A stretch of DNA of 52,359 nucleotides from a bacterium (GCA_018829565.1 JAHJTW010000022.1:1-52359), one strand, 5' to 3'; positions 5,782 through 38,924 are shown, counted from the stretch's first letter. A program made the numbers and translations. Notes: generated by a model not told the origin, from the letters alone.

Positions 5782-5794
5782 GGGACCGACCTCC

Positions 5795-6253: not shown

Positions 6254-8104
6254 CTACCCCCGCCAGCCATCGATCCACCCCCGGGGGCGCCGCAAAGGCA
6301 TGCTCGGCTCCGGCTCGGCCGCGACGGGCACCTCGCGCAGGTTGGCCAGGGCTGCCGCGCGTTCGGGCAGGGACTTCACGAACGACGGGCCCAGGATGTA
6401 GAGGGCGGCCAGGCAGTAGACCTCGAGGTCGAGGGCCTCGTTGCGATCGCGGGTCTTGACCCACTCACGGACCGTGCCGCGGTTCTTGATCCACTTGCGG
6501 ATGGCCTTCTCGGCGGTCAGCTGGGCGGTGTACTCCTCGTCGATCCATTCGGGCAGATGGCAGTAGCCGGGCCCCGGCGACCCGATGCGTAAACGCGAGT
6601 AGACGATCTCCTTGCCGGTGTCGACGCAGAGGGTGAACAGCTTCGCCCGATAGCGGTTGTGATCGGACGGTCGGCCCACGAGAGGCTTGCCACGCTCGGA
6701 GCCACCACGGACGGCGAACACGCGCCGGTCGATCCGAGCGCGGCAGAACCGGTAGACCTGCTCGGAATGGTGGCCGCCGCTGTCGACGGCGACGCAAGAG
6801 ATCGGGACCTTCTGGCCGCTCTCGTGCGTGAACTCGGTCCGCAGGAATCTGTCGAGGTCAAGCCAGACCTGGTCGCGCCCCGGATCGCCGTGGAACTGGG
6901 AGAAGGCGACAAGCCAGGACTCCTCGGCTGCGCCGTACCCCTTCACCGCGCACTCGAGGCGGTCGCCCTGCACGTCGACCGCGGCCACGAGTACGCCTAC
7001 GCCAGTAGGCACCTCGGCTTCGTATCGCTCCGCTCGGGCCAGCAGGCTGTCTGGGTCGACGGTCTCCCCGCGCTCTTCCCAGGTCTCACCCAACACGCTG
7101 TTGACCCAGTTCTTCAGCCGGAGCGGGTTCTCCTTGGACTCCACGAATTCAGCGACGGTGGCCGACCACGGCAGCCAGCCCAGGGGCGAGTAGAGACTGG
7201 GGAGGTGGAACCCGATCGTCTCGCCGTTGCCCTTCGCGGTGGGGCGCCATTGCCCATGGTTGAGCATCTGTGGCTTGAAGCGCTCCTCGATCAGGACGCC
7301 GCAGTGGACGCAGGCCAGGGCTGCGGTCTTGGGGTCGTCGTCGCGCCAGCGGATGTTCTCCCACCGTATCCAGTCGAAGTGGCCGCACTCGGGGCAGGGG
7401 ATGAAGAACCGTCGCTGATCGGAGGCCAGGAATTCCCGCTCGATCCGAGAGATACCCTTGATCGTGGGCGTCGAGACCAGGAACACCTTGCGCCGGGAGT
7501 ACAGGGGCCCCGTGGTGCGCTTCTCCGCAAGCGCGATCGGGTCGCCTTGGCCGTCCACGTCGCCCGGGTACTCGTCGATCTCGTCGCAGAAGAGCCAGCG
7601 GATCGGCATCGACTTGACGCCGGTCGCGGAGTTCGAGCCGGTCAGGAACAGGACCCCGCCAGGGAATTCCTTGATCAGGAGGCTGTTGCCGCCGTCGCGT
7701 GACCGGGCTTCGCGGACCAGCTCGTGCAGGACGGGCGTCGTGGCGATCATGGGATCGAGGCGCTGCCGGCTGAACCGCCGGGCCTCATCCACCGTGGGGC
7801 GTAGAACGAGGATCGGCCCCGGCGCATGGTGCATCACGTACCCAAGCCAGTTGTTGCCGGCCTCGGTGCCGCCCAGCTGCGAGCCCTTCATGAACACGAC
7901 CCGGCGAGCCGGCGACCGCGGACCCAGAGCGTCCATGATCTCGCGCAGGTAGGGCGTGGTGTCGGTGTGCCAGTGCACCGCGGCATGGCCAGAGCGGTTG
8001 CCCAGGACGCGGTGCTCGTCGGCCCACTCGCTGACCGTCAGTCGCGGCTCCGGCCGCCAGCCCGCCCGGTAGGCGGTCTCGTAGGTGTCACGGCCGTTCT
8101 GCAT
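6254..8104 (-). CDS. terL: Terminase large subunit, lambda GpA family
   Basis: LTVSEWADEHR, TPYLREIMD, VVFMKGSQLGGTE (Walker A-like), LFCDEID (Walker B), STPT, CPECG, N.VLGETW, AVDVQ, RNEALD..VY. Confidence 0.95.
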   Translation of the reverse strand: MQNGRDTYETAYRAGWRPEPRLTVSEWADEHRVLGNRSGHAAVHWHTDTTPYLREIMDALGPRSPARRVVFMKGSQLGGTEAGNNWLGYVMHHAPGPILVLRPTVDEARRFSRQRLDPMIATTPVLHELVREARSRDGGNSLLIKEFPGGVLFLTGSNSATGVKSMPIRWLFCDEIDEYPGDVDGQGDPIALAEKRTTGPLYSRRKVFLVSTPTIKGISRIEREFLASDQRRFFIPCPECGHFDWIRWENIRWRDDDPKTAALACVHCGVLIEERFKPQMLNHGQWRPTAKGNGETIGFHLPSLYSPLGWLPWSATVAEFVESKENPLRLKNWVNSVLGETWEERGETVDPDSLLARAERYEAEVPTGVGVLVAAVDVQGDRLECAVKGYGAAEESWLVAFSQFHGDPGRDQVWLDLDRFLRTEFTHESGQKVPISCVAVDSGGHHSEQVYRFCRARIDRRVFAVRGGSERGKPLVGRPSDHNRYRAKLFTLCVDTGKEIVYSRLRIGSPGPGYCHLPEWIDEEYTAQLTAEKAIRKWIKNRGTVREWVKTRDRNEALDLEVYCLAALYILGPSFVKSLPERAAALANLREVPVAAEPEPSMPLRRPRGWIDGWRG

Positions 8105-8651
8105 CCGCGATCTCCTGGCAGATCCGCTCGATCTCTTCCTCGAGGATGCGCTGGACCTCGGCTGGTTCGTCGACCGCGGCCAGGACGGAGGCCAGGCGCT
8201 CGGGCAGGGCGATCAACTGGTCGCGCGCCTTGCGGGCCATGTTGAACGCGCCGAGACGCACCTCGTCGGCGCGGACGAGGGTGCCACGCTTGCGGTCCAG
8301 TTCGAGCTTCGCCAGCTGCGCCTGGTACAGTTCGCGAGCGGCGCGGGCCTTGGCGTAGCCCGTGGCCGTCGATGGGCCGCCGACGATCTCATCGGCTCCG
8401 CCCATGTCCATGGGTTCGGATGGCTCGCCCGGGGTCTTGGTCTGCCTGGGGTTGCCCGTGACCCGGTTGCGGGGCTTGCTCTGGTCGGTGTTCTCCTGCC
8501 ACTGCTGGTCGGCGAGCGCGGGATCGATCTTCCCGTTCACGGTGGAGATGCGGCCTGCTTTGACGGCACGCTGAACCGCGACGTGGGTCACGCCGCGCCT
8601 GCGGGCGTACTCGCGCTGGGAGATCAGCTCCTTCTTCGCTCCCCCGGCCAC
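8088..8651 (-). CDS. terS: Terminase small subunit (Nu1-like)
   Basis: N-terminal winged HTH ISQREYARRRGVTHVAVQRAVKAGRI, coiled coil YAKARAARE..AQLAKLEL; overlaps the terL start. Confidence 0.85.
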   Translation of the reverse strand: MAGGAKKELISQREYARRRGVTHVAVQRAVKAGRISTVNGKIDPALADQQWQENTDQSKPRNRVTGNPRQTKTPGEPSEPMDMGGADEIVGGPSTATGYAKARAARELYQAQLAKLELDRKRGTLVRADEVRLGAFNMARKARDQLIALPERLASVLAAVDEPAEVQRILEEEIERICQEIADAERP

Positions 8652-8654
8652 CGC

Positions 8655-10151
8655 CTACTCATCCCGAGCAGCCCCGCGGTCAGCGGCGACCGCGTCGAAC
8701 GTGCGACCGTCCCCGTCGAGCGTGGCCTTCTGGCCGGTGGCCTCCTGCCACCGCATCACGATCACGTCCGTGTAGGCGGGGTCGAGTTCCATGAGGAAGG
8801 CATGCCGTCCGGTCTGATCGGCACCCATCAGGGTCGACCCACTGCCGCCGAACAGGTCGAGCACGTTCTGGCCGGGCTTCGACGAGTACTGAATGGCGCG
8901 CACGGCCAGCTCGACCGGCTTCTCGGTCAGATGGACCATGCTCTGCGGGTTGACCTTCTTGACCGCCCAGACGTCGACGGCGTTGGTCGGGCCGTAGAAG
9001 TTGTGGCCCGCTCCTTCGCGCCAACCGTAGAACGCCCATTCGTGATTACCCATGAAGTCCTTGCGGGTGAGCACGGGGTGCTCCTTCACCCAGATGACCG
9101 CCTGGCTGAAGTACAGGCCGCAGGCCTTCAGCACCGGAGGGTAGTTGGCGCAGTTGGCGTAACCGCCCCAGATGTAGAACGAGTGCCCGGGCTGGAGCAC
9201 GCGGGCGATGTTCCCGAACCACGCCAAGAGCATCTCGTCGAAGGCCTCGTCCGAGACGAAGTCGTTGGCCAGGGGGCGGTCCTTGGGGCGCATCTTCCCG
9301 GTGGGCTTGGACTTGGTCTTGTGCCGCGCGAGGTCGAACCCCTGGTGGTGCATGCCCTTGGCGTCGGAGGCCTCGACCGCGCTCTTGGTGGACGGCGGGA
9401 AGCTGGACAGGCCGGCGGCGATGGCGTTGTTGGAGCGCGGCTCGACCTTCACGTTGTAGGGCGGGTCGGTGTTCACGAGGTGGATCTTCTGGCCGCCGAG
9501 CAGCCGATCGACCGATGCGGGATCGCAGCTGTCGCCGCACAGAAGGCGGTGGTTGCCCAGGACCCACAGGTCGCCCTGCCGGCTGGTGGGCTCCTCGGGA
9601 GGCTCCGGGGCGGGGGCATCTTCGACGGTCTCGTCGTCGAGGAGATCGTGCAACTCGTCCAGATCGAAGCCAGTCAGCTCGAGGTTGAAGTCGAGGTCCT
9701 CGAGGGCCTTCAGTTCCTCGGCGAGCAGGTCCTCGTCCCAGCCTGCATCGAGGGCAAGGCGGTTGTCGGCGATGACGTAGGCCCGCTTCTGGGCCTCGGT
9801 CAGGTGGGTGAGCTCGATCACCGGGACCGTGGTCATGCCCAGCTCGCGGGCGGCCAGGAGCCGGCCATGGCCCGCGATGATGCCGGCCTCGCCGTCGACC
9901 AGGATCGGGTTGGTCCAGCCGAACTCGAGCAGGCTGGCGGCGATCTTGGTGATCTGCTCGGGGCTGTGCGTGCGCGGGTTCCGCTCGTAGGGGCGGAGCC
10001 GGTCGATGTTCCAGTGTTCCAGTTTCCCGGGCAGGATCACGGGAGACTCGGATCGCGCGGAATCGCCCCTAGGAGCCGTTTCGGGCGCGTTTGAAGACTT
10101 TTCGGACTTCTCGGAACTGGAACAATTGGTGTCGGTGGAAACTTGTTTCAT
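8655..10151 (-). CDS. ParB-like N-terminal domain fused to N6/N4 DNA methyltransferase
   Basis: ParB-N LRPYERNPRTH..FGWTNPIL..IIAGHGRL.AA; MTase DPPY, HLTEKPVEL, VLDLFGGSGSTL. Confidence 0.92.
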   Translation of the reverse strand: MKQVSTDTNCSSSEKSEKSSNAPETAPRGDSARSESPVILPGKLEHWNIDRLRPYERNPRTHSPEQITKIAASLLEFGWTNPILVDGEAGIIAGHGRLLAARELGMTTVPVIELTHLTEAQKRAYVIADNRLALDAGWDEDLLAEELKALEDLDFNLELTGFDLDELHDLLDDETVEDAPAPEPPEEPTSRQGDLWVLGNHRLLCGDSCDPASVDRLLGGQKIHLVNTDPPYNVKVEPRSNNAIAAGLSSFPPSTKSAVEASDAKGMHHQGFDLARHKTKSKPTGKMRPKDRPLANDFVSDEAFDEMLLAWFGNIARVLQPGHSFYIWGGYANCANYPPVLKACGLYFSQAVIWVKEHPVLTRKDFMGNHEWAFYGWREGAGHNFYGPTNAVDVWAVKKVNPQSMVHLTEKPVELAVRAIQYSSKPGQNVLDLFGGSGSTLMGADQTGRHAFLMELDPAYTDVIVMRWQEATGQKATLDGDGRTFDAVAADRGAARDE

Positions 10152-10166
10152 GACTCTCCCACGCTA

Positions 10167-10215
10167 CGAAAGCCGAGGTCGCCGGCACCCGCGGCTGATA
10201 GCCCCGGAAGTACCT
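10167..10215 (-). other. Candidate lambda-like cos site (cosQ-cosN-like)
   Basis: Minus strand AGGTACTTCC...TGCCGGCGACCTCGGCTTTCG, compared with recalled lambda GGGTCCTTTCC...GGGCGGCGACCTCGCGGGTTTTCG; lies upstream of the MTase-terS-terL operon. Confidence 0.6.
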
Positions 10216-10279
10216 ACGGCATCGTCAGTTATGATTTGGTGACTTCGCGGGGGCGAAGCCGCATGCGAAACACTCGGGT

Positions 10280-10945
10280 TCACAGGCCTCTTCCTTTCGA
10301 CCTCGCGATGGCGTTCAGCACTTCCTTCTCCATCTCCTCACGGAACCAGCGGTCGGACTCCTTCTTGGCGGTCTCGACGAACCGGAGCCGCGGTTTGAGC
10401 TTCTTGCCGCTAGTGAAGGCGTAGACTAGGCGCGAGGCTCCGGGTCCCGTGCGCTGGAAGATGCCGACCTCGGGTACGAGGTAGGTCTTGGTGCGCGTGA
10501 CCCCGACACGGCGACGGCCGGTCTTGGTGAGATCGAAGCGGAGACGGCGGACGCGCAGCTCGGGCGGGACGGGCTGCGTGAACCGCGGGCGGGCGGGTCC
10601 GCCGACCACAGGCTCGGCCACACGCCTGGCCCCCTGCGTGAACGGTTTGCGTTCGGCTCCGCGCTCGAACGCAGAGAGCAGCAGACGAGGCTTCTGCCCG
10701 ACACCGATCTCGGCGTACGGCCTGCCCTGCTTCACGTTGGCAAACGGCTTGATGACAGCGGCCTGGCGGCGGATGAACTCCTTCTTGCGGATCGTGAACT
10801 CTTCCTCGACGCGCCGACGTTCGACAGCCTGGATCCGCTTGGCCGTGTTGTTGATGGCGTTGACGACGGCGTAGGCTAGACGGCGCTGGCCATTCTGCAG
10901 ACGCAAGACCAGGGGAGCGGAGTCGATCTGCAGGTCGATCCTCAT
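10280..10945 (-). CDS. Basic phage protein, lambda gpZ (tail completion)-like
   Basis: Start re-called at ATG 10945; A.VNAINNTAKR..., basic composition, ends F..EM.KEVLNAIARSK. Confidence 0.55.
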   Translation of the reverse strand: MRIDLQIDSAPLVLRLQNGQRRLAYAVVNAINNTAKRIQAVERRRVEEEFTIRKKEFIRRQAAVIKPFANVKQGRPYAEIGVGQKPRLLLSAFERGAERKPFTQGARRVAEPVVGGPARPRFTQPVPPELRVRRLRFDLTKTGRRRVGVTRTKTYLVPEVGIFQRTGPGASRLVYAFTSGKKLKPRLRFVETAKKESDRWFREEMEKEVLNAIARSKGRGL

Positions 10946-11250
10946 CGCGGGCCTCCGGAGTCGCCTTCGGGCTGCGTGATCTGCCGGCTGTGTTGGTAGA
11001 TGGCCTCGAGGGTTAGTCGGCCTCGGGACATCTCGACGAGGGCCATGGCGCGGGCCGGACGGGGCGTGTGGCCCTGGAGCCATTCATAGACAGCCTGGTT
11101 TGTGACGCGCAGGGTGGGGTCGTGGGCCAGGCCGGCGACGATGCGGGGCACGCCGAAATCGGCCACCCAGCGGCCGAACTCGGTCTCCCAGCGATCGGGG
11201 ACGCGCTTGAACCTGCCTCGTTCAAGCGCTTCGTTACGGAACATCGTCAC
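10942..11250 (-). CDS. Cro-like HTH DNA-binding protein
   Basis: RVTNQAVYEWLQGHTPRPARAMALVEMS..RLTLEAIY pattern; stop overlaps the next ATG. Confidence 0.55.
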   Translation of the reverse strand: MTMFRNEALERGRFKRVPDRWETEFGRWVADFGVPRIVAGLAHDPTLRVTNQAVYEWLQGHTPRPARAMALVEMSRGRLTLEAIYQHSRQITQPEGDSGGPR

Positions 11251-11388: not shown

Positions 11389-11994
11389 TTACCGCGCGGC
11401 AGCTCTCGCTTTAGCCGCATCTCGAAGGATCTCGAGTGCTTCGCGTATCACATAGAGACCGATTCCAAAGCCAACCACAAGATCGGGATAACGCGAGCCG
11501 GTCATGAATACCAGAAGCGACGCGACCAGTACGGCCAAGTTGGCAACGACATCAGCGCGCGTGAAGATCCAGGTAGCTCGAAGATGGACCTCGCCGTTGC
11601 GGTGCTTGGAGAGCAATCGAAGGACGATGGTGTTCACGATGAGGGCTGGTGTTGCCAGGATCGCCATGATCAGGCTTTCGGGCTCGCTGCCCGTGATGGC
11701 TCGGCCAACGATGGCTAAGCAGGCACCGATGCCGAGCAGGAGAAGGATAGTACCGCTGGCCGTTGCCGCACGAGCCTTAAATAGCGACCCACGGCTCACG
11801 GCAGCGATGGCGATCCCATAGGCAGACGCGTCGGCGAGCATATCGAGAGAATCCGCGATGAGCCCGGAAGATTCCCCGATGACCCCGCCGATCAACTCGA
11901 CTACGAACATCGTCGCATTCAACGCGAGGGCGAGCCTGAGGGTCCGACCCGCCTCGACCGATGTCACTTCTGCTGTGCACCCACAGTCACTCAT
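11389..11994 (-). CDS. Short cation diffusion facilitator (CDF) transporter lacking the C-terminal domain
   Basis: SGLIADSLDMLADASAYG, HLRATWIFTRADV..N, D..VG..I; six hydrophobic segments. Confidence 0.88.
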   Translation of the reverse strand: MSDCGCTAEVTSVEAGRTLRLALALNATMFVVELIGGVIGESSGLIADSLDMLADASAYGIAIAAVSRGSLFKARAATASGTILLLLGIGACLAIVGRAITGSEPESLIMAILATPALIVNTIVLRLLSKHRNGEVHLRATWIFTRADVVANLAVLVASLLVFMTGSRYPDLVVGFGIGLYVIREALEILRDAAKARAAAR

Positions 11995-12065
11995 TGATCC
12001 CACTCCTTGTGGGGATAGTGGTTCGAATCAAGAGGCTGCCGTGCTCGGATAATGGACGGCCGGGC

Positions 12066-12983
12066 CTACGACGTAGAATTGCCGCACGGTCCGCTTCTAT
12101 CCAAACAACTTCCCTGCGGCTCGAATTCGAGGGTGGTATGAGAGATCTCGAATTCTTCGCGAAGTAGTTTCTTCAGGGTTCCTTTGATTGTCTCTGAATC
12201 CTCAAAGCCGACCATCGAAACGACATGGGCTTCGAGCGCGCGATTGTGTTCATCTATCTGCCACACGTGGACGTGGTGGACTCCATGGACGCCGGAAACG
12301 TTGGCCATTCGTGCGGTAAGCCGGTCGAGGTCGACCCCGACCGGGACGCTGTCCATCAGGATGCGGACCGACTCTGCCATCAGCTTATATCCCTGAAACA
12401 GGATGTAGCCGGCCAGGAGCAGGGTGGCAATGAGATCAGCGACGTACCATTGAAACACCAGCACGAGGATGCCGACGCAGATGACGACGAGCGATCCGAG
12501 GGCGTCCGCGACGTTGTGGACGAAGGCGGCCTTGATGTTGATGTTCTCTTTGGCCATCGAGAAGGTCATCAGGGCAGTGGCGAGATCCACGACAAGAGCG
12601 AAGCTCGCGACGATGACAACGATCCACCCGTCGATGGGCTCGGGCTGCAGGAAGCGGGCGACCGCTTCATAGACGAGGTAAAGGCCGACAATGATCAGTG
12701 TCGTCGTGTTGATCAGGGCACCGATCACCTCGGCTTTCCGGTAGCCGAAGGTGCGAACCTTGTCTGCCGGCCGACGCGCAATTCGACGCGCAATCAGAGC
12801 GATACCAAGAGACGCGGCGTCGTTCAGGTTGTGCAAGGCGTCCGCCACCAGGGACAGGCTGCCCGAGATGACCCCGCCGACCACCTGGGCGCCGGTCAGC
12901 AGGACGTTGACAACGATGGCGGCAAGCAGTCGACGGTCTCCGGTCTGTTCAGGGTCCGGGTGATGCGAATGTCCGTGTCCCAT
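12066..12983 (-). CDS. czcD: CDF family Co/Zn/Cd efflux transporter
   Basis: His-rich N-terminus, SLSLVADALHNLND, TFGYRKAEV.GALIN, NIKAAFVHNVADALGS, VHHVHVWQ. Confidence 0.93.
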   Translation of the reverse strand: MGHGHSHHPDPEQTGDRRLLAAIVVNVLLTGAQVVGGVISGSLSLVADALHNLNDAASLGIALIARRIARRPADKVRTFGYRKAEVIGALINTTTLIIVGLYLVYEAVARFLQPEPIDGWIVVIVASFALVVDLATALMTFSMAKENINIKAAFVHNVADALGSLVVICVGILVLVFQWYVADLIATLLLAGYILFQGYKLMAESVRILMDSVPVGVDLDRLTARMANVSGVHGVHHVHVWQIDEHNRALEAHVVSMVGFEDSETIKGTLKKLLREEFEISHTTLEFEPQGSCLDRSGPCGNSTS

Positions 12984-13013
12984 GGTGGCGGCCCTTTCTC
13001 GTCGCGGACGGTC

Positions 13014-13352
13014 TCACACGGCAGCTTCACCGGTCTCGCCGGTGCTGATACGAACCGCGTGCGAAATGTCCGTGACGTAAATCTTCCCATCCCCCTTCAA
13101 ACCGGTGTGTGCCGCCTGCTCGATTGCTGCCATGATGTCCGCGGCGAGGTCATCCCGGCAGAATACCTCGATCTTCACGCCTTTTCGATAGCTGAACGTT
13201 TCGGAGTCGGACGCGTGTTCCGTGCCGGCCCAGCCCGCACCAAAGCCGCGGCAGTCCACGATGCTCATCCCCGTCACCCCCTCGATGCGATGGAGCGCCG
13301 AGGTAACGTCCGCCAGCTTGTGCGTCTGGATGTAGGCTTTGATCTCCTTCAT
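13014..13352 (-). CDS. P-II family (GlnB-like) signalling protein associated with metal efflux
   Basis: MKEIKAYI...V..AL..I.GVTGM....GFG; KIEV; TG..GDGKIYV.DI..AVRI.TGE.G..AV. Confidence 0.88.
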   Translation of the reverse strand: MKEIKAYIQTHKLADVTSALHRIEGVTGMSIVDCRGFGAGWAGTEHASDSETFSYRKGVKIEVFCRDDLAADIMAAIEQAAHTGLKGDGKIYVTDISHAVRISTGETGEAAV

Positions 13353-13371
13353 GACTGCTCTCCTTCATGGC

Positions 13372-16470: not shown

Positions 16471-16484
16471 GGCGTCATCTCCAA

Positions 16485-17471: not shown

Positions 17472-17472
17472 G

Positions 17473-27001: not shown

Positions 27002-27004
27002 GGC

Positions 27005-31032: not shown

Positions 31033-31045
31033 GGCTTTCTCCCTC

Positions 31046-31516
31046 TTAGGTCAGGGTCTCCGCGTCATCGGCGCGGGACTGGTAATCGATCCGGAACGTC
31101 ATGGTGGCGCGGCAGAACGATGTCTCGGCCTGCTCGTACTCGAACTTGGTGCCGATCTCGTCGGCGGGGCCATTCGCGAAGCCACCGAACGTGCCGGCTG
31201 CCGCCAGCGCGGTCGTGGCGAAGGCCAGGATCGGATCGGCCGCCTTGTCGGGTTCCTCACCTGCTCCGGCCTTGGTCAGGACCTCGACGCTCACCAGCAC
31301 CGACCGCCGCACGATGGGCCCGCGGCTGGCCGTGCCGGTCTTGGCTTCCCGCATCGTCTCGACCGTCTCGGCCCCCTGGTAGACCGTCAGCGCGGGCAAC
31401 TGGTCTGAGCCGGGCGAGTCCAGGCGCGTCCGCACCGGGGCGGGGACGCCCACGGGCGCGTCGGTGGCCAGAGCCAGGACGGCGGCCGCGACGATCTGCT
31501 CACGGATCGTGCTCAT
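31046..31516 (-). CDS. Tail terminator (gpU-like)
   Basis: MSTIREQIVAA..., LPALTVY, ...F.IDY; directly upstream of the tail tube gene. Confidence 0.7.
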   Translation of the reverse strand: MSTIREQIVAAAVLALATDAPVGVPAPVRTRLDSPGSDQLPALTVYQGAETVETMREAKTGTASRGPIVRRSVLVSVEVLTKAGAGEEPDKAADPILAFATTALAAAGTFGGFANGPADEIGTKFEYEQAETSFCRATMTFRIDYQSRADDAETLT

Positions 31517-31818
31517 GGCGTCCTCAGCGCGACTCGGACCATGGCCCCGTCTCCGTAGGGCAGGACCTTCAGAACGGTGTAGGCCGTGCCGCCGACTGTG
31601 ATCGCGGCCCCTGACTGCAGTCCCGGCAGCACCCCGCTCTGGACGTGGACGATCTCATCGGCGGCCACGACCGCGGGCATCTCACCGCCCAGGATCTCGA
31701 CGGCCTCGCGGTCGAGCAGCCCGAAGACTGTGACGTCGCCGAGGGTGACCTCGACCACGCCACCGGCTTCAGCCAGGTCCGCGAGCATCGCCGCGATGTC
31801 GAAGCCGCCGAGGGACAT
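31513..31818 (-). CDS. Head-tail joining protein (gpFII-like)
   Basis: Small beta-rich protein ending G..ITVGGT.YTV..V.P.GDG...V.L. Confidence 0.7.
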   Translation of the reverse strand: MSLGGFDIAAMLADLAEAGGVVEVTLGDVTVFGLLDREAVEILGGEMPAVVAADEIVHVQSGVLPGLQSGAAITVGGTAYTVLKVLPYGDGAMVRVALRTP

Positions 31819-31821
31819 GGT

Positions 31822-32211
31822 TCAGCTCGCCTTCGTGATCCCGACGAACTCCACGCCGAAGTCGAACGACGGCGTGGTGCCGGCGATGGTGCCGATCACC
31901 CGCAGGTATCGCTTCAGGTCCGAGACGTTCAGCTTCATGACCTTCACGCCGGCGGTCTCGGCCGCGTCGGTGACCTGGGAGAACGTGCCGCTGGTGACAT
32001 CCTCGTAGGTCGAGTCGTCGTCCGAGTGCTGCAGCTTCACGTCCAGGGTGGGGCTGGTGCCGGTGCCGGCCGAGGCGTTCAGCAGCACCAGGGCCACGCC
32101 CTCGTACTCGAGCACGTCGATGCCGGTCCCGGTCAGGGTCGAGGTCCGGCTGGCCGCCGGGGCCAGTTCGACGCCGGTCGCCTGGGCCAGGGCGTTCAGT
32201 AGGTGGGTCAT
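31822..32211 (-). CDS. Head decoration/cement protein (Bbp16-like)
   Basis: Start re-called at ATG 32211; TG.GID, TLDVKLQHSDD.STY.DV, KRYLRV. Confidence 0.7.
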   Translation of the reverse strand: MTHLLNALAQATGVELAPAASRTSTLTGTGIDVLEYEGVALVLLNASAGTGTSPTLDVKLQHSDDDSTYEDVTSGTFSQVTDAAETAGVKVMKLNVSDLKRYLRVIGTIAGTTPSFDFGVEFVGITKAS

Positions 32212-32215
32212 GCGG

Positions 32216-32521
32216 TTACCTCCCGCCGGCGCGCGGCCGGCCTTTGCGCCCCTGAGGCGCCAGGGTGTCGGGGTCCCGGTCTTCGGTGGCCGGGTCCCCA
32301 TGGCTGATGGTGGCGGGCCCGGAGGCCGCGGGAGCCTCCGGACCCGCCGCGGGCACGGACGGGATGACGCGGGCGTAGCCCATCCGGACCTTCTTGCGGG
32401 CGTCCGCGATCGACAGGTCCTTCGGAGCCACCAGGATCTGGCCGGGCAGGACGTCGTTGCCTTCGCCTCCCAGGCAGTGACCCGTCGTGACCTCGATGGT
32501 GAGCGTGCCTTGCTCCGTCAT
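32216..32521 (-). CDS. Small capsid-adjacent protein
   Basis: Start re-called at ATG 32521; short globular domain followed by a Pro/Ala-rich tail, as often seen after a major capsid gene. Confidence 0.6.
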   Translation of the reverse strand: MTEQGTLTIEVTTGHCLGGEGNDVLPGQILVAPKDLSIADARKKVRMGYARVIPSVPAAGPEAPAASGPATISHGDPATEDRDPDTLAPQGRKGRPRAGGR

Positions 32522-32544
32522 GCGTTCTATCCCTTCGTGCCCGG

Positions 32545-34527
32545 TTACGACAGCGTCGCGCCGGTGCCCTTGACGAACGACTCGCCACGCCGGACGGCGG
32601 TGTCGGCCATCGAGTAGCTGGTGATCAGGATCTGGCCGCGGGCGGCCTTGGTGACGACGTCGACTACGATCTCGAGGTCGTTGCCCCACATGCCCACCAG
32701 CAGGTCGTTCCAGTTCCCGAAGACCAGGCCGTGCTCATTGCTGCCGGCTCCCAGCGTCTTGGAGATCTGGTTCGTGGTACGGGCGGGGTAGCCGCCGAGC
32801 TCGCCCTCGCGGTAGGTGCCCGCCCACAGGAAGACCGGGTAGCCGCTGACCAGGGGCGTGCGCTTGAGCACGCCGGCCATCAGCGGGGTGGTCATCCAGG
32901 ACAGGGCCCCCAGGTCGGCGTTCTTGTCCGCGACCAGGGCGGGCATCGTGGTGATGTCCGTCAGGTCGGGCACGCCGCCCACGGCGTGGGACTGCACGTC
33001 GGCCGCGCCGTAGATGCCCACGGGCTGCTTGTCGGTGCCCTTGCCGTGGAGCGCGCCGAGATCCAGGGCCAGGCCGTGTCCGGTCGCCAGGTCGCTGCGG
33101 ATGTCGGCCTCGACGTCGATCGAGGACATCACCAAGAGCTGCCGGGGGATCTGCACCTGGCCGATCAGGGTCTTGGGCGATAGGGACACGTAGCCGTAAG
33201 CGGGCTCGGACCCGGGAGCATCGCTCGGGGGGTTCTCCTCCATCCAGGACACCGTCGGAGCGCCGGTCTTCTTGTTGAAGTACACGACGCCCTGCAGGCC
33301 CGGATAGAGCTTCGCGCCAGCGACCAGCACCAGGGCGCGGTTACGCAGCAGGTCGATCATGTCGGGCATGATCTGCTGGCCGACCAGGGTTGCCCCGCCC
33401 GAGGGCTGGGTGGTGCCCAGCACGCGCTGCTGGTCGTCGTCGCTCAGACGCCACGGCACGAGCACCCCGCCGTGGTCCGCGCCGGTGCGGTGCTTCGTGA
33501 GCTCCTCGTGGACCTCGGCCTCGAGGCCGTCGTACCTGGCGCGCTTGCCATCCATCAGTTCGGCCTGCATGCGGATCGCGCGGTGGATGGAGTAGCGCTT
33601 CTTGTCCCGGGCCGGCATCGCGGCCAGGGCCTCGGCCGAGGGCTGCGCCGGGCCATGGGTGCGGACGGCCTTGAGGATCTCGCGCGAGACCTGGTCGGGG
33701 CTGAGGCCCTGCCTGATCCAGCCGGCGGCCTTGTCGGTCACGCCGTGGGCCTGGGCCATGTCCATGATCTCGGCCGCTTCGGCGCCGCGATCGCGGGTCT
33801 CGGTCACCTTGGGTGCCGGCGCAGACGCCGCCGGCCCGACCGGGGTCTCGTTGCCCTGCGCGGGCGCGCCCTGCGCGGCGGGCTGGGGGGTTCCTGCATC
33901 GACACTCATGGTTCGTTCTCCTTCGGAAGCGGGCTCTTCGATCGTGAACTCGACCAAGTCGGCCTCGGGCACATCACGGGTGCGTCCGAAGCCGACCTTG
34001 TGGTCAGCGGGAATGGGTTCGGTGGACACCTCGTAGGGCATCCAGCGGCAGCGGTAGGTCGCAAGACCGGTCTTCTTGTCCTTGGAGACCATGTCCATCG
34101 ACAGAACCTGATAGCCGACGGAGACGGTCTTGATGTGCCCCTCGCGGAGCATCGTCTCCTGCTCCTGGCCCAGCGGGATGGACGAGAAACTCGCCATGCC
34201 CCGCAGGCGACCGCGCTTCTCGTCGAGCTCGATGTCGTTCACCGAGCCGAAGTGCAGAAGGCGCTGGTGGGACTTGATCAGCGGCAGGCCGTTCTTCGCC
34301 CTGGTGAGGTCCACGTCGCCTGAGACGTGGGACAGGACCTCGTCGTACTCCTCCCAGGTGTCCCAGGAGTAGCGGCGGACGGGAGCCTCGCTGGAGAAGG
34401 ACACCGGGTAGAGGCGGATCTGGCCCTCGCCTTGGTCGGCGCGGGTCTCGACTTCGACCTCGAAGTCCCGGTACTGGATGCGCGGCACCTTCACGGTTCG
34501 CGTCTTGATGGCAGTCGGTGTGTCCAT
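32545..34527 (-). CDS. Prohead protease (HK97/U35-type) fused to HK97-fold major capsid protein
   Basis: N-terminal VSFSSE.PV.R..EVLSH..VDL.R, VSVGYQV, W.PYEVS..PIPAD..VG.GR; C-terminal GG.LV...., LSPKTL, FGNW.DL..G.W, D.AVRR.ESF. Confidence 0.93.
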   Translation of the reverse strand: MDTPTAIKTRTVKVPRIQYRDFEVEVETRADQGEGQIRLYPVSFSSEAPVRRYSWDTWEEYDEVLSHVSGDVDLTRAKNGLPLIKSHQRLLHFGSVNDIELDEKRGRLRGMASFSSIPLGQEQETMLREGHIKTVSVGYQVLSMDMVSKDKKTGLATYRCRWMPYEVSTEPIPADHKVGFGRTRDVPEADLVEFTIEEPASEGERTMSVDAGTPQPAAQGAPAQGNETPVGPAASAPAPKVTETRDRGAEAAEIMDMAQAHGVTDKAAGWIRQGLSPDQVSREILKAVRTHGPAQPSAEALAAMPARDKKRYSIHRAIRMQAELMDGKRARYDGLEAEVHEELTKHRTGADHGGVLVPWRLSDDDQQRVLGTTQPSGGATLVGQQIMPDMIDLLRNRALVLVAGAKLYPGLQGVVYFNKKTGAPTVSWMEENPPSDAPGSEPAYGYVSLSPKTLIGQVQIPRQLLVMSSIDVEADIRSDLATGHGLALDLGALHGKGTDKQPVGIYGAADVQSHAVGGVPDLTDITTMPALVADKNADLGALSWMTTPLMAGVLKRTPLVSGYPVFLWAGTYREGELGGYPARTTNQISKTLGAGSNEHGLVFGNWNDLLVGMWGNDLEIVVDVVTKAARGQILITSYSMADTAVRRGESFVKGTGATLS

Positions 34528-34556
34528 GCACCCAGTAGTGATTCATCCGCGAAAGG

Positions 34557-34589
34557 CCGACCAATCTAAATGTCATTTAGATTGGTCGG
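34557..34589. repeat. 33-bp palindrome (16-bp perfect arms, 1-nt centre) between divergent head genes
   Basis: CCGACCAATCTAAATG-T-CATTTAGATTGGTCGG. Confidence 0.95.
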
Positions 34590-34617
34590 GTCCTGAGCGC
34601 GGTGTCACCGTGGGCGC

Positions 34618-35175
34618 ATGGCACAGGAACTCACAAACCTCCCCGATCAGTTCGCCGCCGGCACGACCGTCAGCTACCGCAGGCGGTTGACGGACTTTCC
34701 GGCATCTGCCGGCTGGACACTCCGGCTCCATCTGGCCGGCGCGAGCGTGCTCGCCAAGACCGCGGCCGCCGATGGCGACGACTTCCTGGTCACCATCGAG
34801 GCTTCCGATACCGAGGGCGACTTCACAGCTGGCCTATACAAATGGGTCGAGCGGGTCAGCAGCGCGGGCGGAGAGGTCTACGAGGTAGACCGCGGCGCCA
34901 TCACGGTGCTGCCCAACCTGGCCGAGGCCTCCGAAGGCAGCGAGCAGGAGTGGATCGAGCGGGCGGTCACGATGCTGCGGGCCCACATCGAGGGCCGGCT
35001 GCCCGCGGGGATGGAGAGTTACCAGATCGCCGGCCGCGTCGTCGCCAAGATGCCGATCAAGGAGGCGATGAGCCTCCTGGCAAGCCTCGAATCCCGTCTC
35101 GCTGGCCTCAAAAACCCCGGGGCCTTCACGCGACCGGTGCTCGTGTCGTTCACCAAGCCAGGGTTCGATCGATGA
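34618..35175 (+). CDS. Head completion/adaptor protein with a gpW-like C-terminus
   Basis: Directly upstream of the portal; ESYQIAGR..KMP..E...L pattern. Confidence 0.65.
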   Translation: MAQELTNLPDQFAAGTTVSYRRRLTDFPASAGWTLRLHLAGASVLAKTAAADGDDFLVTIEASDTEGDFTAGLYKWVERVSSAGGEVYEVDRGAITVLPNLAEASEGSEQEWIERAVTMLRAHIEGRLPAGMESYQIAGRVVAKMPIKEAMSLLASLESRLAGLKNPGAFTRPVLVSFTKPGFDR

Positions 35176-36692
35176 AGCGACCGCTGCACAAGCGCCTTGG
35201 TCGCGCATTTCGGTCAGCCTTGCGGGAGTTGCGCGGTCAGCGCGGCGTATTCGACGGGGCGGGAGTCCACCGCCTGCTCCTGGACTGGATCGCCCAGACC
35301 CGGTCCGCGGACGAGGAAGTCCGCGGCGACATCCGCATGCTGCGGGCCCGCGCCCGCGAACTCGGCCGCAACAACAGCTACGTCAAACGCTACTTCCGTC
35401 TGCTGGTGACCAACGTCATCGGACCTATGGGGATCAAGCTCCAGGCCCAGGTCTGGGCCGGCGACCAGCCCGACTCGAAGGCCAACGCCGCCATCGAAGA
35501 GGCGTGGAACGCCTGGGCCAACGCGCCGGTGACGGTCGACGGCCGGCTCACCTTGCGCCGCTTCGAGAAGCTGATCCTCAAGACCGTGGCTTGCGATGGC
35601 GAGGCCTTTGTCCGCCTCTGGCGTGGGTTCGAGGGCAATGCCCACGGTTTGGCCCTGCAGGCGATCGACGCCGACCTGATCGACGAGACCTTCAATCGCC
35701 CTCGTCGCGGCACCCAGAACGAGATCCGCATGGGCGTGGAGATCGACGCCATCGGGCGGCCGGTCGGCTATTGGATCTGGGACTCGGTCGGTACCGACCT
35801 GATGCGGGAGCGGTACTTCATCCCGGCCGCGGAGATGCTCCACCTCTACGATCCCGACCGCGTGAACCAGACCAGGGGCGTCACATGGGTCCACTCGGTC
35901 ATGGTCCCGGCTCACATGCTCAACGCCTACGAAGAGTCGGAGGCCGTCGCCGCTCGGATCGGCGCCTCGAAGATGGGGCTGTTCGAGAAGCGAGCCGACT
36001 CCCTGGCCGGCGACCTGGCCAGCGATCCTCGGCCTGCCACCATGGAGGCCAACCCGGGGACGTTCGAGATCGTCCCTGATGGCTACGAGTTCAAGGCGTG
36101 GGAACCGGATCATCCCACGGCGCAGTTCCCGGCATTCATCAAGCAGATGCTCCGCAAGATCGCCTCTGGGTTCAGCGTCTTCTACAACGTGCTCGCCAAC
36201 GACGCCGAGGGCGTCAGCTATTCCACCATGCGCAGCTTCGCGCTAGTCGAACGAGACGACTGGCGCTCCATCCAGCAGGACTTCATCGACATGTGGCGGC
36301 GACCGCTGTATGCGGCCTGGCTCGGCATGGCGTTGCTCACGGGCAGCCTGAAGCTCTCCTCCCGCGATCCCTCCCGCTACATGGCCGTCCGGCATCGTCC
36401 TCGTGGCTGGCAGTGGATCGACCCCGAGAAGGAAGCCAAGGCCGCGGTGCTCTCGATCCAGAACGGTCTGGGCACCAGGACGGGATTCCTGGCTGAAAAG
36501 GGTGAGGACATCGAGGACGTCTTCGCCGAACTGGCGCGCGAGCAGGCGCTGGCCAAGGAGTACGGCCTGTCGATTTTCGGGGAGCCGGTACCGGCGGAGG
36601 AACCCAAGGAAGAGCAGCCCAAGGACTCCGAGGATCCGGAAGAAGAGAAGGACGAGGATCAGGCCGAAGTCGAGGACGAGGTGAATGCGTAG
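35172..36692 (+). CDS. Portal protein, lambda family
   Basis: ATG 35172 (ATGA overlap); LRARAR.L.RNN, DGEAFVR, LQ.IDAD, GVE.D.IGRPV.YW, RGV, SYS..R, WIDPEKE. Confidence 0.95.
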   Translation: MKRPLHKRLGRAFRSALRELRGQRGVFDGAGVHRLLLDWIAQTRSADEEVRGDIRMLRARARELGRNNSYVKRYFRLLVTNVIGPMGIKLQAQVWAGDQPDSKANAAIEEAWNAWANAPVTVDGRLTLRRFEKLILKTVACDGEAFVRLWRGFEGNAHGLALQAIDADLIDETFNRPRRGTQNEIRMGVEIDAIGRPVGYWIWDSVGTDLMRERYFIPAAEMLHLYDPDRVNQTRGVTWVHSVMVPAHMLNAYEESEAVAARIGASKMGLFEKRADSLAGDLASDPRPATMEANPGTFEIVPDGYEFKAWEPDHPTAQFPAFIKQMLRKIASGFSVFYNVLANDAEGVSYSTMRSFALVERDDWRSIQQDFIDMWRRPLYAAWLGMALLTGSLKLSSRDPSRYMAVRHRPRGWQWIDPEKEAKAAVLSIQNGLGTRTGFLAEKGEDIEDVFAELAREQALAKEYGLSIFGEPVPAEEPKEEQPKDSEDPEEEKDEDQAEVEDEVNA

Positions 36693-36762
36693 GGAGTGCT
36701 TCGCCGAAGCTCCGCGGCCTGACAGGTGCCCCAGACGAGGGGCGGAACGGAGAGGTTGGAAC

Positions 36763-37140
36763 GTGAGAACGAAGATCATCTGCTTGGTGCTGCTGGTCGT
36801 GGCCGCGGCATGGCTTCCTCTGCTGGGCCTGGCCGCACAGGACGGTGCGGTCGCCGAAGCCACGGGCTGGGTGCCATTCTACGGTACTGGCCCGGTTGGG
36901 TCGAAGCAGGCGCACATCCTCGACATGTACGCGTTGCCTGACCTGGGGACGGTCACCATGTCGTTCTGGGTCTACGACGACGCGGCGCATACCTGGTCAC
37001 GGCTCAAACCGAAGGCAGCGCTCGGAGACTCGGTCTTCACCCTGAGAGAGGGCCTGCCTGTGCGCTTCATCTTCGAGCCGAACGCTCCGGACGCAGCCTT
37101 TCTCTCGGGCGATGGCCGTGCTGACATGATGTGGGAGTAG
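36763..37140 (+). CDS. Hypothetical exported protein
   Basis: GTG 36763 after GGAGAGG; basic N-terminus and hydrophobic stretch (signal-peptide-like). Confidence 0.6.
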   Translation: MRTKIICLVLLVVAAAWLPLLGLAAQDGAVAEATGWVPFYGTGPVGSKQAHILDMYALPDLGTVTMSFWVYDDAAHTWSRLKPKAALGDSVFTLREGLPVRFIFEPNAPDAAFLSGDGRADMMWE

Positions 37141-37146
37141 GCGGTC

Positions 37147-37644
37147 ATGAGGACGCGGATTCTCATGACGGTCATCCTCATCTTGGTCGCGGAGGCCGTG
37201 CCCACGACGGTGTCTGCTCAGTACGGCGGTTCGGTGCACAACGGCGGCTGGGCCAACGGGACGGGTGTGCTTCTGCCGCCGCGTTTGGCGACGATTGCGC
37301 CAGACCCGATCCTCCTGGCCCTCTTGCCTCAGACGTCGTACACGGCGGGTGGTTCGAATGCCTTTGCCTACCTGTACCTGAATGCCCCGTTGTCCGAGGC
37401 CAGGGCGAGGATTCGGGTGGTCCGTCTCAGCGATTCGGCGGTCGTTGCGACAAGTGGTTGGACGGGCACGCTGGACAATCGAGTGACCATCGCCGGGTTG
37501 GTGGTCGGGACGACTTACCGCGTTGAGGTGGAACTCCAGGCACTGACTCCGGCGTGGCTGAGCGTGTCGTGGACGACATTGGTCGCTTCGTATGTCCAGC
37601 CGGGCAAGAACGATCCCCCCTTCGACTACGACTTGCAGGGATGA
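37147..37644 (+). CDS. Hypothetical exported protein with an FN3/Ig-like C-terminus
   Basis: Signal peptide MRTRILMTVILILVAEA..VSA; VTIAGLVVGTTYRVEV resembles the FN3 L.PGT.Y motif. Confidence 0.6.
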   Translation: MRTRILMTVILILVAEAVPTTVSAQYGGSVHNGGWANGTGVLLPPRLATIAPDPILLALLPQTSYTAGGSNAFAYLYLNAPLSEARARIRVVRLSDSAVVATSGWTGTLDNRVTIAGLVVGTTYRVEVELQALTPAWLSVSWTTLVASYVQPGKNDPPFDYDLQG

Positions 37645-37654
37645 AAGGCTGTCA

Positions 37655-38014
37655 ATGGAACTGACACTCGAGGTAGCACGCAGCTTGGGACTTGGTGGAC
37701 TCGGACTCATGGCGACAATGCTGGCCGTGAAGCTGGCCATCCAGACCGTCGACCTCGCCCGAAACCAGCTGTGGAGGCGCAACGGCAGCAACGGAACGAA
37801 GGTCGCCTTCGATGAGCTCAAGGTCGTGTGTCCGCTGGCCCCGGGCCGACACTCCCTCGACGACGTCCACGAGGTCCTGATCCAGATCCGAAGCGGGATG
37901 GAACGGCTCAACGAGACCCAGAAGGAGATCGAGACCGACATGAAGGACCGCAGCCAGCGGTTGTGCGACATCCTCGGGGCGCTGCGCCTCGAGCTGGCCC
38001 GAAGGGAGGCCTGA
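37655..38014 (+). CDS. Membrane-anchored coiled-coil protein (possible lysis accessory)
   Basis: Start re-called at ATG 37655; one N-terminal hydrophobic helix and a C-terminal coiled coil; directly before the endolysin. Confidence 0.55.
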   Translation: MELTLEVARSLGLGGLGLMATMLAVKLAIQTVDLARNQLWRRNGSNGTKVAFDELKVVCPLAPGRHSLDDVHEVLIQIRSGMERLNETQKEIETDMKDRSQRLCDILGALRLELARREA

Positions 38015-38015
38015 C

Positions 38016-38510
38016 GTGACCAGCAGAGAGCTCTTCGACCGGGCGATCGAGGTCGTCCTCGAGCATGAGGGGGACACCTACACCGACAACCCTGTCGATC
38101 GGGGTGGACCCACGAAGTTCGGGATCGCCCAGCGTTGGAACCCGGATTTGGACGTGGCGAGCCTCACTCGAGCGCAAGCCGTCGAGGTCTACTGGGAGCG
38201 CTACTGGCGCGGTCATCGATACGAGTTCCTGCCCGAGGCGATCGCCATCAAGGTCTTCGATCTGGCCGTCAACCTCGGCAACAAGACGGCGGTGACGTGC
38301 CTCCAGCGCGCGCTTCAGGCCTGCGGTCTGCGGGTAGTGATCGACGGAATTCTGGGCACCGAGACCTGTGGGGCTGCGGAGCAAGCCGACCAGAAGGCGT
38401 TGATGGCAGCTCTGAGATCCGAGGCCGCGGGCGAGTACCGGCTCCGGGTGGCCCGAAGCGCGGATCAGATCGTGTTCCAGGGCGGGTGGCTGAACCGGGC
38501 TTATGCCTGA
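38016..38510 (+). CDS. Endolysin, glycosyl hydrolase family 108 with a peptidoglycan-binding domain
   Basis: EHEG..Y.DNP.DRGGPTKFGI, Y...YW, FDLAVNLG, LQRAL, DG..G..T, GWLNR. Confidence 0.92.
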   Translation: MTSRELFDRAIEVVLEHEGDTYTDNPVDRGGPTKFGIAQRWNPDLDVASLTRAQAVEVYWERYWRGHRYEFLPEAIAIKVFDLAVNLGNKTAVTCLQRALQACGLRVVIDGILGTETCGAAEQADQKALMAALRSEAAGEYRLRVARSADQIVFQGGWLNRAYA

Positions 38511-38522
38511 GAGGAGAGTGCA

Positions 38523-38924
38523 ATGGTTGGAGAAATCCTGGGCATCCTGGGGAAAGTCGCTGGCGGAGTCGCCGACCGCATCTTCCCGGACCCGGAGCAG
38601 GAACTGAAGCGGATCGAACTGCAGCAGGCGCTGCAGGCGGCCGTCCTGGAGCGGACCTCGGAGATCGAGCGGGCGGCCGCCGAGGTCGTCAAGGCGGAGG
38701 CGCAGGGCCAAAGCTGGCTTCAGCGGACCTGGCGGCCGATCACGATGCTCGTGTTCGTCGCGCTGATCGTGGCCCGCTGGCTGGGGTGGTCGGCCCCGAA
38801 CCTGGGCGAGGCCGAGGTCCTGAAGCTCTGGGACATCGTCGAAATCGGCCTCGGTGGGTACGTGATCGGACGGTCGGCGGAGAAGGTGCTGCCGGGGATC
38901 GTCGGTTCACTCAAGAAGAGCTAA
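38523..38924 (+). CDS. Holin (3TM, gene-transfer-agent-type family)
   Basis: SWLQRTWRP, TM segments, GLGGYVIGRSAEK. Confidence 0.88.
   Translation: MVGEILGILGKVAGGVADRIFPDPEQELKRIELQQALQAAVLERTSEIERAAAEVVKAEAQGQSWLQRTWRPITMLVFVALIVARWLGWSAPNLGEAEVLKLWDIVEIGLGGYVIGRSAEKVLPGIVGSLKKS

Follow-up and report, generated by a model that had tools for sequence, protein, structure and literature searches.

In tailed phages the order terS-terL-portal-(protease/scaffold)-capsid is among the most conserved genomic features, and annotation pipelines, prophage finders and module-based classification make use of it. The CRP-822-type roseophages, which are among the nearest cultured relatives of the element studied here, form a family with a conserved packaging and structural module, a siphovirus morphology and capsids of ~60-64 nm (PMC12629253). 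In one of them, CRP-821, a single strand carries the homologues of terL, adaptor, portal, capsid and lysin, in the canonical order. Here, we describe a prophage in which this order is broken. It is carried by a bacterial DNA stretch of 52,359 nucleotides (GCA_018829565.1 JAHJTW010000022.1:1-52359, hereafter the window), which corresponds to the whole of contig C162 in a fragmented metagenome-assembled genome (MAG; 354 contigs, 89% completeness). Our data make it very probable that this architecture is genuine and conserved in a widespread temperate siphovirus lineage of uncultured Krumholzibacteriia-type bacteria, with the late genes probably arranged in three units, a palindrome as putative operator between two of them and a candidate cos site ahead of the third.

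Reading frames in the window were picked by third-position G+C, and annotation was based on Pfam, PHROGs and NCBIfam profiles, and on the PDB for some open reading frames (ORFs). The features of the prophage, from left to right, are the following (TM, transmembrane; MTase, methyltransferase).

1..4683, plus strand: end of the early/replication region (Pfam; syntenic in relatives)
1-3841, plus strand: SF2 helicase, cut by the contig start, and prim-pol/PriCT/DUF3987 primase (Pfam)
to 4683, plus strand: two small ORFs after the primase
4742..6103, minus strand: four or five small conserved ORFs downstream of terL (third-position G+C frames; 80-99% identical in relatives)
6254..8104, minus strand: large terminase terL, lambda gpA type, ATPase and nuclease (PF05876 1e-90, PF20454 3e-86)
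8088..8651, minus strand: small terminase subunit terS (phrog_57 5e-35)
8655..10151, minus strand: ParB_N-N6/N4 DNA MTase, first gene of the packaging unit (PF01555 3e-25, PF02195)
10152..10200, minus strand: conserved block with a candidate cos, just upstream of the MTase ATG
10280..11250, minus strand: o10280 and o10942, two conserved ORFs with no role assigned, between the cargo slot and the candidate cos
11389..18807, minus strand: cargo, namely a CDF fragment, a czcD-type CDF gene, a P-II-like gene, RND czcA, MFP czcB and OMF czcC
19351..31032, minus strand: siphovirus tail module (Tape_meas_lam_C, Phage-tail_3; phrog_807, 687, 1082)
19351-22044, minus strand: J-like tip protein
27005-29566, minus strand: tape measure protein
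within 19351..31032, minus strand: major tail protein (phrog_807), chaperone region and distal tail proteins
31046..32301, minus strand: connectors, namely tail terminator, FII-like head-tail attachment protein and Bbp16-like protein (phrog_4204, PF05354, PF21190)
32545..34527, minus strand: S78 prohead protease-HK97-fold major capsid fusion, 660 aa (PF05065 1e-29, PF04586)
34557..34589, no strand: perfect 16+1+16 palindrome at the centre of the 90-bp divergent gap 34528-34617
34618..35175, plus strand: 185-aa head-tail joining (adaptor) protein (phrog_5774 4e-26; weak match to PDB 8gtd_M)
35172..36692, plus strand: lambda-family portal, Phage_portal_2 (PF05136 3e-85)
36685..38014, plus strand: three small ORFs, two with an N-terminal signal/TM segment and one with a TM segment and a coiled coil, spanin-like (hydropathy)
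38016-38510, plus strand: GH108 endolysin with PG_binding_3 (PF05838 4e-20, PF09374)
38523-38924, plus strand: 3-TM holin, GTA_holin_3TM (PF11351 5e-12)

For terS, terL, adaptor, portal, capsid, connectors, tail and lysis genes, the strands in the window are thus -, -, +, +, -, -, -, +, and terL lies 27 kb from the portal gene. This gene order, with these strands and an inverted portal ~27 kb away from the terminase, had been claimed by a first-pass annotation of the window, and our map agrees with it on the place of every part it named. It was also right that no single inversion can produce the arrangement: an exhaustive search over signed circular block orders showed that at least three inversions separate the canonical order from the observed one, wherever the lysis and early genes of the ancestor are placed. 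The genes are intact, as it had proposed, with ratios of non-synonymous to synonymous substitution (dN/dS) between 0.06 and 0.3, and many of their junctions are tight: terS and terL overlap by 17 nt, and the portal start and the adaptor stop share ATGA. Three of its names need correction. Its "gpW" is the 185-aa phrog_5774 adaptor, not the 68-aa W of lambda; its "gpZ-like" gene (o10280, 10280-11083) has a single partial, C-terminal match to phrog_1924 "minor tail protein" and none in Pfam, NCBIfam or PDB; and its "HTH" (helix-turn-helix) gene (o10942, 10942-11250) has no match in any of these, nor in PHROGs. The capsid fusion, first gene of the leftward late operon, also matched phrog_617 (9e-81) and phrog_4523 "major head and protease protein". 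No family was matched in Pfam, PHROGs or NCBIfam by the three small ORFs after the portal gene, and the tRNA and Rfam scans of the window found nothing.

The same layout was found in many other genomes. Four contigs were long enough to be judged (G033, G040, G090 and G002); they represent four genera (GTDB) of one family, none of them the genus of the window, and carry capsid, portal and terL at the same relative positions and on the same strands. Protein synteny with these contigs extends from helicase to holin at 80-99% amino-acid identity, and most of it also aligns as DNA. G002 is a single 4.72-Mb contig, a MAG from activated sludge, and has the same layout as the window. The MAG set it comes from is Nanopore-based (Singleton et al.; PMC8012365), which gives the long-read confirmation that the first-pass annotation had called for. 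Portal-query scans of public genome and IMG/VR collections returned 39 additional loci, 37 of which span the capsid-portal junction. In all 37, the capsid gene is on the minus strand and the adaptor and portal genes on the plus strand, down to 52% capsid and 65% portal identity. Further, terL lies on the capsid strand, 19-28 kb from the portal gene, in seven other records including the Nanopore-derived 4.7-Mb contig. The distance is 21 kb in viral contig G093 (CheckV 91% complete) and 19 kb in G092 (portal 68%, terL 75% identity). A third viral contig, G091, covers the other arc: terL and the small ORFs converge with prim-pol, helicase, early genes and the large serine recombinase (LSR), which are followed on that same strand by holin, portal and adaptor, up to the divergent capsid gene. 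In total, the same order was met in more than 40 independent contigs from different assemblers and samples. None of the close relatives (the four long contigs, the 37 loci and the three viral contigs) had the canonical order, and no insertion sequence (IS) element or repeat was present at the breakpoints. Of the two findings that the first-pass annotation had named as refuting it, a long-read misassembly and a canonical order in close relatives, neither was made.

The lineage is widespread in the environment, with records from activated sludge, soil, groundwater and sediments. The genome of the window has one copy each of terL and portal; the capsid search, which covered five related genomes, found one copy in each of them. 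A terL match at E <= 1e-50 was obtained in 16 of 91 genomes of the host family, with a copy 86-99% identical in about ten of them; near-identical terL copies were found across different host genera. Compared with relatives ~15% divergent in DNA, terminase, portal, capsid, tail, lysis and replication genes alike gave dN/dS of 0.06-0.3, for example 0.08-0.11 for terL and 0.10 for the portal gene. The small ORFs at 4742..6103, which end the leftward arc and converge with the early genes, gave 0.10-0.32. The ORFs o10280 and o10942, kept in all relatives and in a terminase-only element of G002 described below, gave 0.2-0.26, and the ParB-MTase is 90-96% identical in relatives. The values obtained against G090 for o10280 and tail J (dN above 1.5) were alignment-frame artefacts and were ignored. 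Taken together, these values indicate that the lineage is under selection as a working unit. Besides, one genome without matching portal or capsid genes has a terL copy 80-89% identical (G044:C2:1021776-1023629), broken by TGA stops and frameshifts, which is a decayed member of the lineage.

The nearest cultured matches of terL, portal and capsid belong to the same set of phages, i.e., CRP-822-type roseophages, VP882, phiHAP-1, RcRhea/RcCronus, S-CBS3 and ECOO78. Identity to these cultured matches is 44-48% for terL (CRP-821, ZRG1 and AcaML1 terL give this range), 35-38% for the portal and 28-31% for the capsid fusion, and the adaptor is homologous to the CRP-821 gene sitting between terL and portal. 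Because the three proteins share their nearest cultured relatives, the displaced blocks are of common ancestry, and not a mosaic of unrelated modules. The element has the GpA-type terL, the Phage_portal_2 portal preceded by an adaptor of 180-200 aa and the single-gene S78 protease-HK97 capsid of that group; it lacks the colinear, one-strand terS-terL-adaptor-portal-capsid-connectors-tail-lysis order. Judged by its protein content, the window phage belongs to the siphoviruses with a lambda-type portal, a GpA terminase and a protease-capsid fusion, and the morphogenesis proteins of its lineage descend from that group.

Portal relatives form a continuum down to 48% identity, and distant relatives have graded architectures, so that the path of rearrangement can be traced. 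At 48%, a 39.9-kb contig (L063, identical to L066) has adaptor, portal, capsid and tail genes all in one direction, with a terminator-like hairpin ahead of the adaptor gene; no GpA terL was found anywhere on it. At 54% (L064), the capsid-adaptor divergence and a palindrome are present, and beyond the lysis genes the early-type genes are on the capsid strand. At 59% (L065), divergence and palindrome are again present, and the lysis genes are followed by small ORFs and then by terL (65% identical), ~9 kb beyond the portal gene; a search of viral contigs for portals of the L065 type gave no match. Thus, in the relatives at 54-59% the adaptor-portal-lysis block alone is flipped, and in the group of the window the early region is co-oriented with that block too. 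What stays constant across the clade is an operon complete in itself, adaptor-portal-(variable ORFs)-lysis, which diverges from the capsid gene.

The 90-bp gap between these two operons is centred on the palindrome, which reads CCGACCAATCTAAATG-T-CATTTAGATTGGTCGG (34557-34589, 33 bp) and is AT-rich within a genome of 67% G+C. The capsid ATG is 29 nt away on one side and the adaptor ATG 28 nt on the other. Among the inverted repeats of the 52 kb the palindrome ranks first, it occurs only once, and its fold has a z-score of -7.5 relative to shuffled sequences. In about 30 relatives, the core of the palindrome is invariant while its flanks vary, and in the distant relatives L028, L047-L050, L064 and L065 a different palindrome occupies the same position. 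Two variants are informative as to its role. In L026 (CAYZWI010000027.1, locus 8515-9444), the gap contains an insert of ~840 bp with an SRA/HNH-like (type IV restriction-like) ORF, and one copy of the palindrome stands on each side of it, so that each operon retains a copy ~28 nt from its start codon. Such a duplication with conserved spacing points to a promoter-proximal element serving each operon, rather than to a cos site or an origin. In L042-type variants, one symmetric position is altered in both arms and complementarity is not kept, a change that speaks for protein half-sites rather than for a hairpin in RNA or DNA. We therefore consider it probable, with reservations, that the palindrome serves a dimeric regulator as a symmetric late promoter/operator acting in both directions.

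The packaging genes have a conserved upstream region of their own. The ~60 nt that immediately precede the MTase ATG hardly differ between 6 copies; elsewhere the same gap is variable or, in G090 and the second element of G002, contains an inserted HNH-like ORF. The invariant block contains the lambda-cosN-like motif GGCGACCTCG at 10174-10183, flanked by GGG and TTTCG. These 10 nt are identical to nt 5-14 of the lambda left cohesive end, and the surroundings also match (NC_001416). That the block is the cos site is a plausible reading, which we favour slightly. As a side observation, an insert of ~600-700 bp with HNH-like Cys/His motifs is found directly upstream of the cos-like block in G090 (~34430-35140) and in the second element of G002 (~451840-452440), between o10280 and the ParB-MTase gene; it is absent from the window, from G033, from G040 and from the full prophage of G002 (G002-A). 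In cos phages, HNH genes typically adjoin those for the terminase (HK97 gp74). The cargo cassette between tail J and the packaging genes is inverted in G090 and G002. As no read-through from the tail operon can reach the packaging genes there, these genes must form a unit with its own promoter, at least in those relatives. The first-pass annotation had concluded to a distinct lineage with two divergent late operons; the lineage stands, and the number of late units is probably three.

The following explanation can be proposed. The usual colinear block terS-terL-adaptor-portal-capsid-tail-lysis has been broken into three units. The first, leftward, runs from capsid through connectors and tail to J, and the second, rightward, from adaptor and portal through the variable membrane ORFs and the spanin-like gene to endolysin and holin, both starting back to back from the 90-bp region centred on the 33-bp palindrome. 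A dimeric regulator bound to the palindrome would then switch on capsid and portal together despite their opposite strands. The third unit, for packaging, consists of the ParB-MTase, terS, terL and the small ORFs, and is placed beyond the cargo slot that follows tail J, with the candidate cos ahead of it. The packaged chromosome would read cos-MTase-terS-terL-small ORFs, then on the opposite strand the early genes and the LSR, followed by lysis, portal and adaptor (also on the opposite strand), and finally capsid-tail-cargo-two small ORFs-cos. If the cos reading is right, it would begin with the terminase genes as in lambda. What is directly observed here comprises the identities, order and strands of the genes, their conservation under purifying selection, the conservation and covariation of the palindrome, and the conservation of the cos-like block. 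We infer from the sequences that the lineage makes infectious virions, and the promoter/operator role and the cos assignment have the same basis.

Several points weigh against this explanation. The scan of the divergent gap for promoters of the sigma-70 type gave 0 matches, a result to be read with the reserve that the host promoter consensus may differ. No further copies or half-sites of the palindrome occur elsewhere in the window; being single, it cannot also control the packaging unit, and this leaves room for a unique-site role (origin, cos). The lambda-like 10-mer occurs 3 times in the window and alone is not significant. Also, among 11 motif-bearing viral contigs none ends exactly at the candidate cos, which is internal in those of known motif position, bar one that ends 12 nt from the expected nick and is uninformative. 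The LSR of the window is oriented opposite to that of the relatives and is cut by the contig end, and between holin and LSR there are 9-20 kb of mostly non-homologous DNA in G002, G091 and G033. A unit with this variable DNA included would reach 58-69 kb, which is large for a capsid of lambda size. Finally, activity, transcription start sites and DNA ends are all things that we infer.

The strongest alternative accepts the architecture and gives the palindrome another function, i.e., a cos or packaging site, a replication origin, or a recombinase site at which the portal-lysis block is flipped. Its uniqueness is what one would expect of a cos or an origin, the lack of a detectable sigma-70 promoter and the strong cruciform or hairpin fold agree with such functions, and the palindrome borders the very block whose orientation differs between lineages. 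Nevertheless, we regard this alternative as unlikely: the duplication in L026, which leaves each operon one copy at ~28 nt, would not be expected for a cos or an origin, the arm changes of the L042 type favour protein half-sites, the flipped state was seen in 0 of 37 loci, and a better cos candidate exists near terS.

It is highly doubtful that the element is a scrambled or decaying prophage, or two adjacent remnants, one with capsid, tail and terminase and the other with portal and lysis genes. Several chromosomes do have related units side by side, G002 contains, besides the full prophage, an element with terminase and without structural genes, the flanks in G033 are related but non-identical, and the terL of G044 is broken. 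However, terL and portal are single-copy here and capsid is single in each of the five related genomes, all ORFs are intact with dN/dS of 0.06-0.3, the 90-bp junction is kept to the nucleotide across genera, and terL, portal and capsid have common nearest cultured relatives.

A domesticated particle system of phage origin, of the gene transfer agent (GTA) or tailocin kind and kept by the host, is very improbable as well. The GTA_holin_3TM holin, the Phage-tail_3 match, a weak, sub-threshold match of Rcc01698_C on tail J, and the conservation of the element across host genera under purifying selection would fit such a system. In contrast, the element brings along genes for its replication, an LSR integrase and the DUF2924 partner of the latter, terS and terL in full and a full-size genome; its patchy distribution (16/91 genomes) with near-identical copies in different genera fits mobility and not vertical inheritance, and its cargo is variable. 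Lastly, an assembly artefact, either a chimera or a segment inverted, e.g., through the 33-bp palindrome, or two metagenome phages joined, is hardly credible, for while the window is a whole contig of a 354-contig MAG and its G+C falls from ~0.66 to 0.52 after 38.9 kb, the same order recurs in more than 40 independent contigs including the Nanopore-based one of 4.7 Mb, distant relatives with different palindromes share the junction, and the G+C drop is outside the morphogenesis region, exactly at the holin stop. We thus retain the reading of a genuine, conserved architecture with probably three late units, a putative palindromic operator and a candidate cos ahead of the packaging genes.

Two places within the conserved layout are variable. 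Between tail J and the small ORFs o10280 and o10942, every one of the five MAG copies has a slot filled with an RND metal-efflux cassette. That of G090 and G002 is a different RND system, with 39-46% amino-acid identity and opposite orientation. The slot is nearly empty in viral contig G092 and holds ~2.4 kb only in G093. In the window, Pfam backs the CDF genes and the P-II-like gene of the cargo; the czcCBA labels come from the first-pass annotation and are backed solely by homology to the RND cassettes of the relatives. A second variable slot corresponds to the two signal/TM ORFs after the portal gene (window 36685-37644). Seven loci (L019, L030, L032, L042, L044, L046 and L051) have another insert there, with a spacing from portal to o37592 of ~4.0 vs 2.4 kb, and L064 has at this place a gene for a 723-aa "virion structural protein"-like product together with a patatin gene.

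No homology to any relative extends past the holin stop codon, and G+C, which is ~0.62-0.70 up to 38.9 kb, falls to 0.51-0.60 at the same point. The stretch 38925-52359, which has this lower G+C, is not common to the relatives. It contains the following features.

~39.09-39.30 kb, minus strand: excisionase-type HTH ORF (read by eye from the sequence)
within 38925-52359: 716-aa MTase, GT2-like gene and Mrr-type nuclease (restriction-type set)
within 38925-52359: T5orf172/DUF4041 gene
right end of the window, minus strand: LSR, cut by the contig end

In the relatives, a DUF2924-LSR operon stands upstream of the early genes, and the stretch between holin and LSR carries a conserved ParB-HTH gene in G002, G091 and G033. 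This conserved element of the relatives ("X") had been considered as a possible RNA, as its six tblastx frames looked alike, yet Rfam gave nothing; it is the ParB-HTH protein gene. Prophage units are flanked on either side by genes for ParB-HTH and DUF2924, which recur at comparable distances and are 76-82% identical, at these sites.

G033:C3: 5039-5304 vs 65251-65515, and 10894-11030 vs 69221-69357
G002: 427523-427972
G091: ~34.3-35.2 kb

This recurrence suggests either adjacent related elements or a phage-borne accessory arc. The possibility that the G033 contig is the wrap-around of a circular genome was ruled out, its ends being only 76-82% identical. The variable stretch, that of the window at 38.9-52.4 kb included, could be either accessory DNA borne by the phage, or else a nearby island, or host DNA separating related prophages that adjoin each other. 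In each case, the order of the morphogenesis genes is unaffected. A tRNA-Asn was seen near the LSR side in G033 and G090 only. As the integrase is a large serine recombinase, long direct repeats at the attachment sites are not expected.

In the long-read chromosome of G002, the full prophage is adjoined by a second element of ~19 kb (element B, G002:C1:434485-453429, loci L013-L014). Its order is DUF2924-LSR, early genes, helicase and prim-pol on one strand, converging with a block on the other strand that reads two small ORFs, the HNH-like insert, ParB-MTase, terS, terL and small ORFs. Element B stops exactly at the boundary of the cargo slot and has no capsid, portal or tail genes. Also, two MAGs at least 96% complete (G006 and G054) have a terL 93-95% identical and no portal or capsid match. 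Element B could be either a deletion remnant or a satellite bearing terminase and cos. A more far-reaching idea, which we consider doubtful, is that the lineage is a stable fusion of two halves, the first of which can exist alone, and that element B could be packaged into the capsids of the resident full phage. The "replicon-packaging" half may comprise DUF2924-LSR, early genes, helicase/prim-pol, small ORFs, terL, terS, ParB-MTase, cos and the two small ORFs; the "virion-lysis" half may comprise cargo, tail and capsid opposite adaptor-portal-lysis, driven from one palindromic switch. If true, this would be a type of satellite with both terminase subunits but no capsid gene.

The lineage is, on solid grounds, a conserved exception to the textbook rule of synteny, and it reveals no new mechanism. 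Its broken order is fixed and is maintained under purifying selection, so that even lambda-like siphoviruses have no mechanistic need for colinearity. For practice, this means that tools expecting terL beside the portal gene will mis-call or split such prophages. Also, the palindrome between capsid and portal offers a compact candidate for the co-regulation of two late operons. The hosts belong to a candidate phylum (Krumholzibacteriota-type MAGs) without described phages in the literature searched, and no paper on this lineage or on phages of Krumholzibacteria was found in it.

The closest known systems are the CRP-822-type roseophages (Roseobacter phages CRP-811/821/822/823/831; PMC12629253), Vibrio VP882, Halomonas phiHAP-1, Rhodobacter RcRhea/RcCronus, Synechococcus S-CBS3 and Escherichia ECOO78, which share with the window phage an adaptor of 180-200 aa, the FII-like and tail-terminator connectors, a siphovirus tail and a GH108 endolysin. 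In these phages, however, a single strand carries the genes in the order terS-terL-adaptor-portal-capsid-tail-lysis, whereas in the window adaptor-portal-lysis is opposite to capsid-tail, and terS-terL comes after tail and cargo. Unlike that group, the lineage described here is temperate (LSR), measures ~45-49 kb or more and carries cargo.

With lambda, the element has in common the GpA-type terL, terS directly upstream of it, the Phage_portal_2 portal, the FII-like connector, the lambda-type C-terminus of the tape measure, the J-like tip protein, a moron or cargo slot after J, and the cosN-like motif upstream of the terminase operon. It differs in that lambda has one rightward late operon (lysis-cos-Nu1-A-W-B-C-D-E...J), separate C/Nu3 and E genes, a W of 68 aa and no MTase between cos and terS.

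Divergent late operons that split the head genes are known in P2-like phages (P2, 186, phiCTX), where Q-P is opposed to O-N-M-L across a short intergenic control region and activator sites are dyad-symmetric. The short divergent gap in the window has a central dyad-symmetric site, conserved or covarying, which may be a site for a late activator; no activator of the Ogr/Delta type was identified in the window element. In P2, portal and terL go one way and scaffold, capsid and terS the other, whereas in the window the portal goes with lysis and both terminase genes are on the capsid strand ~27 kb off. The protein families of P2 are also unrelated and its tail is contractile, whereas the tail module of the window has a phrog_807 major tail protein, a tape measure and a J-like tip, and no sheath gene.

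RcGTA-like elements are vertically inherited clusters of ~15 kb without replication or integration genes, in contrast to the window element with its helicase, prim-pol, LSR and 33 kb of morphogenesis genes and cargo. The last comparison concerns the cluster S mycobacteriophages (Marvin type), in which two minor tail genes have been displaced to the right arm (PMC9872701). There too, a departure from canonical structural synteny is tolerated throughout a lineage. However, the terminase-portal-capsid core of cluster S is colinear, whereas in the lineage of the window it is the core head and packaging block itself that is split.

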